Part shown: piece by piece, positions 841-1,193 of the stretch
Layout: the number at the start of each line of letters is the position of its first letter
Position numbering within the stretch: the stretch's first letter is position 1
Sequence record: MN850609.1
Length of the DNA: 64,000 bases
Origin: Escherichia phage dhaeg
Direction: 5' to 3' (one strand)
The notes under the pieces: generated by a model
Databases searched by the model: none
What the model saw: only the letters and a program-made list of their open reading frames with translations
What the model was told of the DNA's origin: nothing
Position numbers and translations under genes: made by a program

Positions 841-867
841 AATCGAGGAGCCGTCGAACTGTCTGAT

Positions 868-887
868 TAATGATTTGCGAATCATTA
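868..887 (+). terminator. perfect 8-bp hairpin (taatgatt-tgcg-aatcatta) downstream of rIII
   Basis: Inverted repeat read directly, followed by tagtttt; AT-rich stem so termination efficiency is uncertain. Confidence 0.3.
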
Positions 888-1193
888 TAGTTTTAAGACC
901 CCGGCAGTTTTACGGTGTACCTCTTGAATGTTATTTTATAGCGGCAAGTGCATGCTACCCCGAGGTGATGGCCAATCGGGAGTACGCCTCAAGGCCTATA
1001 TACCCATCAGTATATATCTTATCCTCGAGAAATCGAACCCGGAACCTTTAAGCTAACGGTGCGCAACAGATAAGAGCTATGATGACGAGGTTTATGGTTA
1101 TCCTGTCGTTAAATATCCGAAACCTATGTTCCCCTTGAGGGCTTGCGCAGGCAACGCCAATAAGTCCTGCATTCTAATTTAAGAGATTTAAAA

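Follow-up and report, generated by a model that had tools for sequence, protein, structure and literature searches.

Comparative analysis of phage genomes shows that the spacer between rIII and gene 30.9 (positions 841 to 1193 of the window, by which we mean the whole 64,000-nucleotide stretch of Escherichia phage dhaeg DNA that was analyzed) specifies a conserved, multidomain structured RNA on the plus strand. The window comes from a T4-like phage of the genus Dhakavirus, and over its first 3 kb it shares 97% identity with Escherichia phage CLB_P2; for JS98, 88% of this part aligns, at ~97% identity. The original prediction preferred a structured RNA to mere spacer DNA, and this view is borne out by covariation in every module and by conservation above that of the flanking genes. 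Support for a structured RNA thus comes from comparative evidence and not from thermodynamics, GC content, or the pairing of distant 8-mers. Compensatory substitutions beyond those of controls, the general mark of a structured noncoding RNA, are found when the spacers are aligned.

The spacer fills the exact interval between two plus-strand genes. Upstream are gp31 (108 to 431) and rIII (592 to 840), the product of which matches PHROG 1457, "lysis inhibition accessory protein," with an E value of 4e-43; the rIII stop codon (838 to 840) adjoins the first module directly. Downstream is gene 30.9 (1194 to 1355), which encodes a 53-aa basic protein homologous to T4 30.9 (PHROG 1427, "unknown function," E value of 6.5e-26). 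Neither a plus-strand sigma-70 promoter nor an intrinsic terminator is found in 841 to 1193, and the nearest terminator is an intrinsic one 3' of 30.9, at 1359 to 1380; the T4 late and middle promoter consensus sequences were searched for in the spacer by eye only. A weak 9/12 promoter-like match on the minus strand (1200 to 1171) overlaps the 3' end of the spacer, and such matches are no more frequent than in shuffled sequence. Because the spacer has no promoter or terminator of its own, we take it to be cotranscribed with rIII and 30.9. A scan of the window detected no tRNA or tmRNA. An N/nut-like antitermination system, to which a small basic 30.9 protein, a structured leader, and a downstream terminator might be likened, was considered and set aside as analogy only.

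Two other features of this neighborhood were seen. Each of the two genes that follow 30.9 has its −10 region, its leader, and its start codon within a copy of a 55-nt direct repeat (1427 to 1481 and 1870 to 1924, 93% identical), which resembles the mobile promoter/leader cassettes of T4-type phages. The gp31-rIII spacer (432 to 591) likewise appears to be modular structured RNA, with a late-promoter box (TATAAATA) at 432 to 439, a variable first hairpin, a long GAAA-capped hairpin at 504 to 563 (GGTGGAC...GTCCACC) that has a homolog in the terminal hairpin preceding 30.9 of Klebsiella-type phages, and a hairpin at 572 to 584 that covers the rIII Shine-Dalgarno sequence.

The rIII-30.9 spacer matches 997 phage records, in which it occurs once per genome and at the same locus each time. 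When it is aligned with its counterparts from T4, RB69, and a Klebsiella phage, its 5' and 3' parts are nearly identical between genera while the adjoining rIII is heavily substituted; its central 135 nt are missing in T4, are replaced by 45 other nucleotides in RB69, and are 94% identical in Klebsiella phages with differing flanks. Across genera, the modules described below are 92 to 100% identical, compared with 68 to 91% for the flanking genes. Identity to the window is 95 to 99% for module A in T4, RB69, and other genera that carry it, 94 to 98% for module B (72% in L056, the most divergent phage), and 90 to 98% for module C in E. coli-type phages. The corresponding values are 68 to 91% for rIII (83 to 91% in the comparison of module A with T4, RB69, and others), 69 to 82% for gp31, and 73 to 90% for 30.9. 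In Klebsiella phages, module B is 94% identical and rIII is 68 to 72% identical.

Module A (841 to 935, plus strand) is predicted to form a long branched stem for which the minimum-free-energy structure equals the centroid (z = −2.74). Its helices (845 to 848 with 920 to 923, 850 to 854 with 912 to 916, and 856 to 863 with 903 to 910) enclose a hairpin at 868 to 887 and a conserved single-stranded stretch at 888 to 902. The hairpin, TAATGATT-TGCG-AATCATTA, has 8 bp and a 4-nt loop and is perfect, just as it had been described originally, and relatives show compensatory changes at two of its pairs, to TATCGATT/AATCGGTA. When 14 distinct sequences are compared over 25 pairs, 98.9% of the alignment cells are paired, and compensatory change is seen at 5 of the 25 pairs (1.7 in shuffled alignments and 0 to 1 with slid partners).

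Module B (938 to 1080, plus strand) is an autonomous domain of ~140 nt with a predicted four-way junction, in which three arms, one of them GNRA capped, accompany the closing stem. This stem, P1, pairs 938 to 942 with 1076 to 1080, and the remaining helices are 943 to 945 with 994 to 996, 954 to 963 with 976 to 987, P3 (997 to 1003 with 1010 to 1016), P4 (1017 to 1023 with 1069 to 1075), P5 (1025 to 1028 with 1033 to 1036, with a GAAA loop), and P6 (1037 to 1041 with 1057 to 1062). An arm loop (966 to 971) would form a 6-bp kissing helix with the entire loop of the next hairpin (1004 to 1009). This kissing helix covaries, appearing as UGAUGG/CCAUCA, CGAUGG/CCAUCG, CUAUGG/CCAUAG, and, in a shifted register, CAAUGA/UCAUUG. 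P1 also covaries between phages (ATAGC/GCTAT, TAAAC/GTTTA, ACAC/GTGT, and TTTATAAGC/GCTTATAAA), and the unpaired stretches CAAGUGCAU and CUCAAG are invariant. With 17 sequences, RNAalifold and pair counts yield 46 pairs; 98.5% of cells are paired, and 18 of the 46 pairs are compensatory. Shuffled alignments give 7.0 ± 1.7 compensatory pairs, with none of 500 reaching 18, and slid partners give 0 to 4. A covariance model of module B detects it once in the 64-kb window (170.7 bits), with no additional copy there or in unrelated phages. Judged by its covariation, which is comparable in strength to that of accepted RNA families, module B is a new RNA with a complex fold.

Module C (1081 to 1193, plus strand) comprises a pseudoknot and three hairpins, one of them small, one terminal, and one weak and lying over the ribosome-binding site. 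C1 (1081 to 1128) probably folds as an H-type pseudoknot. Its stem 1 (1082 to 1086 with 1105 to 1109) is paired in 94.8% of cells, with 3 of 5 pairs compensatory, and its stem 2 joins a loop segment (1088 to 1093) to 1120 to 1125, beyond a conserved CGUUAAAUA stretch, with 72% pairing in the raw alignment and 4 compensatory pairs. The complementary loop and tail switch together by phage type (TTAGTAGT/ACTACTAA, TTGTGAG/CTCACAA, and TTGGTT/AACCAA). We call the pseudoknot probable because this evidence comes mainly from divergent types and because the contiguous-helix test is noisy (6.9 bp for own, 5.4 for cross, and 5.5 for shuffled combinations). C2a (1131 to 1147) is a small hairpin, CCC-UUGA-GGG, followed by a conserved CUUGCG; it is conserved in every E. 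coli-type spacer and in most Klebsiella-type ones, whether or not module B is present, and varies only in its loop. The terminal hairpin (1147 to 1170) has the form GCAGG-CAACGCCAAUAAGU-CCUGC, in which the 14-nt loop is conserved. Inspection by eye indicates that its stem is swapped to AACTGG/CCAGTT in L053 and that Klebsiella-type phages have a different, longer terminal hairpin with the stem GGGAGC/GCTCCC. In the 30.9 initiation region (1172 to 1196, with the ATG at 1194), as read from the sequence, a weak putative hairpin of UUCU (1172 to 1175) with AGAG (1182 to 1185) overlaps AAGAGA, the Shine-Dalgarno sequence of 30.9. Stronger equivalents over the 30.9 ribosome-binding site are predicted in T4 (AUUUUC/GAGAAU) and L050 (AUUCU/AGAAU), and Klebsiella-type phages have a conserved CUCC...GGAAGA motif at this position.

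Covariation among related phages had been named as a check of the original prediction, and the compensatory changes in A, B, and C1 do go beyond those of controls. Other indications on which the prediction was built fare less well. The minimum-free-energy fold of the whole region is unremarkable against shuffled sequence (z = −1.79 on the plus strand and −0.65 on the minus strand), and the z scores by module are −2.74 for A, −0.91 for B, and −0.19 for C, so that on folding energy alone two of the three modules would have been taken for no better than shuffled sequence. The claim that the segment is visibly GC richer than its surroundings is weakly true. Its GC content of 0.439 is above the window mean of 0.398 (standard deviation of 0.033 for 353-nt windows, of which 10.5% equal or exceed the spacer), but rIII (0.434) and 30.9 (0.444) are its equals, and module B, at 0.49, is the sole part that stands out. 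The long-range complementary 8-mers do exist, CCTCAAGG at 987 to 994 and CCTTGAGG at 1133 to 1140 (within C2a), but their spacing is 146 nt rather than the ~135 nt originally given, their number is at chance level, and they do not covary. One perfect complementary 8-mer pair is seen, compared with a mean of 1.0 in dinucleotide shuffles, 52% of which contain at least one. The partner at 1133 to 1140 lies in the small hairpin that is kept in T4 and RB69, both of which lack the partner at 987 to 994, and in spacers with both partners, a spacer's own duplex (−9.5 kcal/mol) is no better than one formed with swapped partners (−9.2 kcal/mol). Based on the shuffle frequency and the swapped partners, we rejected the long-range helix as a conserved feature.

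The structured domains are not fixed in number or order. The 45 related spacers collected from IMG/VR, metagenomes, and GenBank are built from about 10 distinguishable modules (A0, A, B, B', C1, C2a, H, H2, X, and Y). At least 12 different orders are seen, among them A-B-C1-C2a-H2, X-C1-A0-B-C2a-H, C2a-B-C1, and B'-C1-C2a-H2. Spacer length ranges from 150 to 420 nt among phages. Even within Tequatrovirus module B varies, being absent from T4 and present in L089 and L093, and in L063 and some other T4 relatives 30.9 directly follows rIII with no spacer. From these alignments, the rIII-30.9 locus is shown to be a cassette array in which each domain is closed by its own stem and is nearly invariant in sequence. 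A T4-type block (A0-A-C1-C2) is also found inside the tRNA operon of a phi92-like myovirus, without the 30.9 gene. Near identity to a copy in Tequatrovirus marks it as recent, and it therefore carries little information on selection.

The phi92-like block lies on the reverse strand of contig L025 (~2404 to 2747), between tRNA-Gly and tRNA-Gln. It comprises a ToxI-like unit, A, C1, C2, and the 30.9 start codon, which is joined to the final 27 codons of rIII, and it is flanked by a 13-bp direct repeat, TTTATTGGAGATT, of which TGGAGATT matches the 5' end of tRNA-Gln. A further variant occurs on a 1.5-kb metagenome contig (L095), in which C2a runs directly into the interior of 30.9, with loss of the terminal hairpin, ribosome-binding site, and 30.9 N terminus and retention of A, B, and C1. 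Either a natural deletion or an error of assembly could account for it.

One cassette of the array has a recognizable counterpart in bacteria. A0 is absent from the window, where module A directly follows the rIII stop codon, and is present in T4 and many relatives. Used as a query, it gives multiple matches in each of 68 small mobilizable enterobacterial plasmids. Those in E. coli plasmid NZ_CP030113.1 form a tandem array of 5.6 copies of a 36-nt repeat, AGGTGATTTGCTACCTTTAAGTGCAGCTAGAAATTC. The gene immediately downstream of the array carries the annotation "type III toxin-antitoxin ToxN/AbiQ family toxin," and this position leads us to identify the array as the ToxI antitoxin of a ToxIN abortive-infection system. 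With this plasmid repeat as the reference, A0 is identical at 31 of 36 positions in L039, in the Klebsiella type, and in L107 and at 26 of 36 positions in T4. ToxI positions C27 and U28 are reported to be critical, and the pseudo-ToxI of phage phiTE, whose expanded ToxI-like repeat array suppresses ToxN, carries U9C/A25G and an extra 3' A (PMC3475682). The phage ToxI-like units described here keep C27 and U28, and the L039 unit has both the U9C/A25G compensatory pair and the extra 3' A, as in phiTE. We found no mention of a ToxI-like unit in the T-even spacer in the ToxIN/T4 literature consulted (PMC5449768, PMC9391042, and PMC10853763).

The unit is single in T4 (L001, GenBank accession no. 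X54536, ~1356 to 1390), and in relatives, including L039 and L002, a single unit lies right after rIII or between other modules. Solitary, nearly perfect ToxI-like units (AGGTGATTTGCTACCTTAAGTGCAGCTAGAAA) also occur in intergenic positions on unrelated phage contigs from IMG/VR (L102, L103/L105/L110/L111, L108, and L109). Some of these stand behind promoter-like sequence or before a terminator, and in one family further hairpin-rich noncoding sequence follows. A putative resemblance of the T4 unit (ATTCACTGCC...GAGCTAAAA) to type I-F CRISPR repeats, in TTCACTGCC and a GCTAA-AAA tail, may be coincidence.

The other cassettes have no such counterpart in the collections searched. Plasmids and E. 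coli genomes were searched by blastn, and species genomes and metagenomes were scanned for exact patterns; these searches returned only the same phage locus or chance matches. No bacterial counterpart of A, B, C, or any other non-ToxI cassette was found in 72,556 plasmids, where only chance-level matches occur (E values of 1 to 4), or in 5,426 E. coli genomes and 185,579 GTDB species genomes, where there are no matches. As far as these collections go, the non-ToxI cassettes, A, B, and C included, are not mimics of any bacterial RNA.

A covariance-model scan, also suggested with the original prediction, matched the spacer to no Rfam family. Nothing relevant was found at E values of up to 10 among the 4227 models of Rfam 15, whether the window, the spacer alone, or five relatives were searched. 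The only match at an E value of ≤10 within 830 to 1200 or in homologous spacers is on the minus strand of L056 (14 bits, E value of 7.5) to a 27-nt plant-virus pseudoknot model, and it is not in the spacer of the window; the Rfam matches with better E values are all outside the spacer and all below gathering scores. The T4 stable RNAs rnaC and rnaD (species 1 and 2) were tried as candidates and rejected, as they give only chance matches of 9 to 12 nt. We found no description of the rIII-30.9 spacer in the literature consulted, and the reference T4 record has no annotation there.

As to function, we favor, with a probability of roughly 45%, the reading that the spacer modules are protein-binding or decoy RNA cargo. 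The domains would be carried as cargo in a transcribed, noncoding safe harbor, each of them serving as a specific binding platform or decoy for a host or phage RNA-binding protein, as the ToxI-like cassette would for the ToxN nuclease. The domains could do so as parts of the abundant rIII transcript or once released from it by cleavage, and only the 3'-most hairpins, beside the 30.9 ribosome-binding site, would act in cis on 30.9 translation. The autonomous folds, the irrelevance of order, the patchy gain and loss, the near-invariant loops, and the presence of an antitoxin mimic in the array all suggest independent cargo. The window itself lacks the ToxI-like cassette, so for this phage the decoy reading rests on association, and the failure of A, B, C, and the other non-ToxI cassettes to match a bacterial RNA also counts against it. 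So do the facts that in every case a hairpin over the ribosome-binding site closes the array at the start of 30.9 and that the upstream rIII leader has the same architecture and shares a hairpin type, since both fit a purely cis-acting leader. A bolder version, which we advance only tentatively, is that the spacer is an "RNA anti-defense island" in which phages collect and exchange structured RNAs, each neutralizing a different RNA-binding immunity protein. The ToxI mimic would be its recognizable member, and module B would be a new class of decoy or aptamer directed against a defense system with an RNA ligand that is yet to be described.

The main rival holds that the whole spacer is a cis-acting leader, that is, a structured 5' untranslated region of 30.9 joined to the 3' region of rIII, which would control translation initiation by occluding the Shine-Dalgarno sequence and, as a barrier to exonucleases or a site for RNase III/E, would also govern the stability or processing of the mRNA. 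Its location immediately upstream of the 30.9 start in every spacer, the terminal and ribosome-binding-site hairpins in all types, and the lack of an internal promoter or terminator are all what a leader would lead one to expect. The gp31-rIII leader, moreover, has the same layout, in which a CCTC/GAGG-type hairpin covering the Shine-Dalgarno sequence comes after other hairpins, and has the long GAAA-capped hairpin in common with the Klebsiella-type 30.9 leader. However, modules are shuffled in order and gained or lost among close relatives, which a position-dependent leader would tolerate poorly, and relatives such as L063 do without the spacer altogether. The loops and junctions are nearly invariant across genera, beyond the needs of a stability element, and the antitoxin-mimic cassette has no plausible role in cis. 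We regard a leader role for the entire spacer as less likely than the cargo reading. The last 50 nt probably do act as a cis leader of 30.9, and to this extent the leader explanation overlaps partly with that of cargo. It is improbable that module B represents a new class of ligand-sensing aptamer (riboswitch) or self-cleaving ribozyme, in which the closing stem, four-way junction, kissing loops, and invariant junction bases would make up a pocket or active site. The covarying closing P1, the covarying 6-bp loop-loop helix, the GNRA loop, and the invariant unpaired stretches are aptamer-like, but no expression platform is evident, P1 adjoining the next module without alternative pairing. Nor is the position of B relative to the gene fixed, as other modules can separate the two or flank B on either side, and no Rfam riboswitch or ribozyme matches at E values of up to 10.

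DNA-level signals, pseudogenes, and chance are unlikely explanations. A replication or packaging signal was the alternative offered alongside a structured RNA in the original prediction, and it finds no support here. Exchange of modules between phages does imply that recombination acts at the locus, and a 13-bp direct repeat does flank the phi92-like insertion, which would suit a replication origin, packaging signal, or recombination hotspot. Yet the helices contain frequent G-U pairs and do not tolerate the A-C mismatches that are their opposite-strand equivalents, which places the structure in plus-strand RNA, and covariation keeps the pairing and not the sequence. The mapped T4 origins lie elsewhere, and T4 packaging is not known to use a specific site. 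We consider a DNA element very improbable. The chance that the spacer is decayed coding sequence, whether a homing-endonuclease pseudogene, as had been raised earlier, or a set of small unannotated ORFs, appears slighter still. Several GenBank records do annotate small hypothetical ORFs or "glycogen branching enzyme" over the spacer; OL964735, OK275722, PV402692, and others, for example, carry small hypothetical ORFs or "1,4-alpha-glucan branching enzyme, GH-13-type." As originally stated, there is no ORF of 60 aa or more on either strand of 841 to 1193; the longest, 58 aa from a TTG, extends from 875 to 1051, and the longest stop-to-stop frame is 71 aa. Translated searches with the ten longest stop-to-stop segments (≥20 aa, chosen from all six frames) gave no Pfam match at an E value of ≤1 and a single PHROG match at chance level (E value of 0.22). 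The ORFs are not conserved, T4 lacking the module B that the 58-aa ORF spans, and substitutions fall on base-pair partners and not on third codon positions.

T4 and its relatives are among the best-studied viruses, yet this locus is unannotated in the T4 record, misannotated as small ORFs in many others, and missing from Rfam, and at least one new RNA with a complex fold, module B, lies within it. Should the modules prove to be decoys, counterdefense by RNA would be common and modular in a model phage family, and each orphan module would be a probe for the host protein it binds. If the spacer is instead a leader, it would amount to unusually elaborate posttranscriptional control for a 53-aa protein of unknown function.

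The spacer can be compared with several known systems. In T4, leaders that hide the ribosome-binding site are found at lysozyme e, soc, and gene 49, and the gene 32 leader forms a pseudoknot. The 3' end of the spacer is like these leaders, in which hairpins or pseudoknots of the untranslated region gate translation, in that its hairpin overlaps the Shine-Dalgarno sequence. The T4 leaders are short and serve a single gene, whereas the spacer is 150 to 420 nt long, multidomain, shuffled, and far more conserved than its genes. Aptamer domains such as that of the purine riboswitch combine a closing stem with kissing hairpin loops. Module B resembles the purine riboswitch in its closing stem, which covaries, its multiway junction, its kissing hairpin loops, and its invariant junction nucleotides; it differs in having four arms, a length of ~140 nt, no Rfam match, and no recognizable expression platform. 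The PeSL of T4-type phages are promoter-early plus stem-loop mobile cassettes, promoter-bearing repeats that are scattered over the genome. Like them, the spacer modules are short noncoding cassettes exchanged among T4-type genomes, and unlike them, the spacer modules have no promoter, occur once per genome, and adopt complex folds. In contrast to the tandem array of Pectobacterium phage phiTE, the T-even ToxI-like unit is single and embedded among unrelated structured modules, and the window lacks it; modules A, B, and C themselves resemble no antitoxin in the plasmid and genome collections searched. The likeness to the pseudo-ToxI of phiTE (PMC3475682) is that both are phage-encoded, noncoding, structured RNAs at an intergenic locus and that relatives of the window carry a ToxI-like unit within this same rIII-30.9 spacer.
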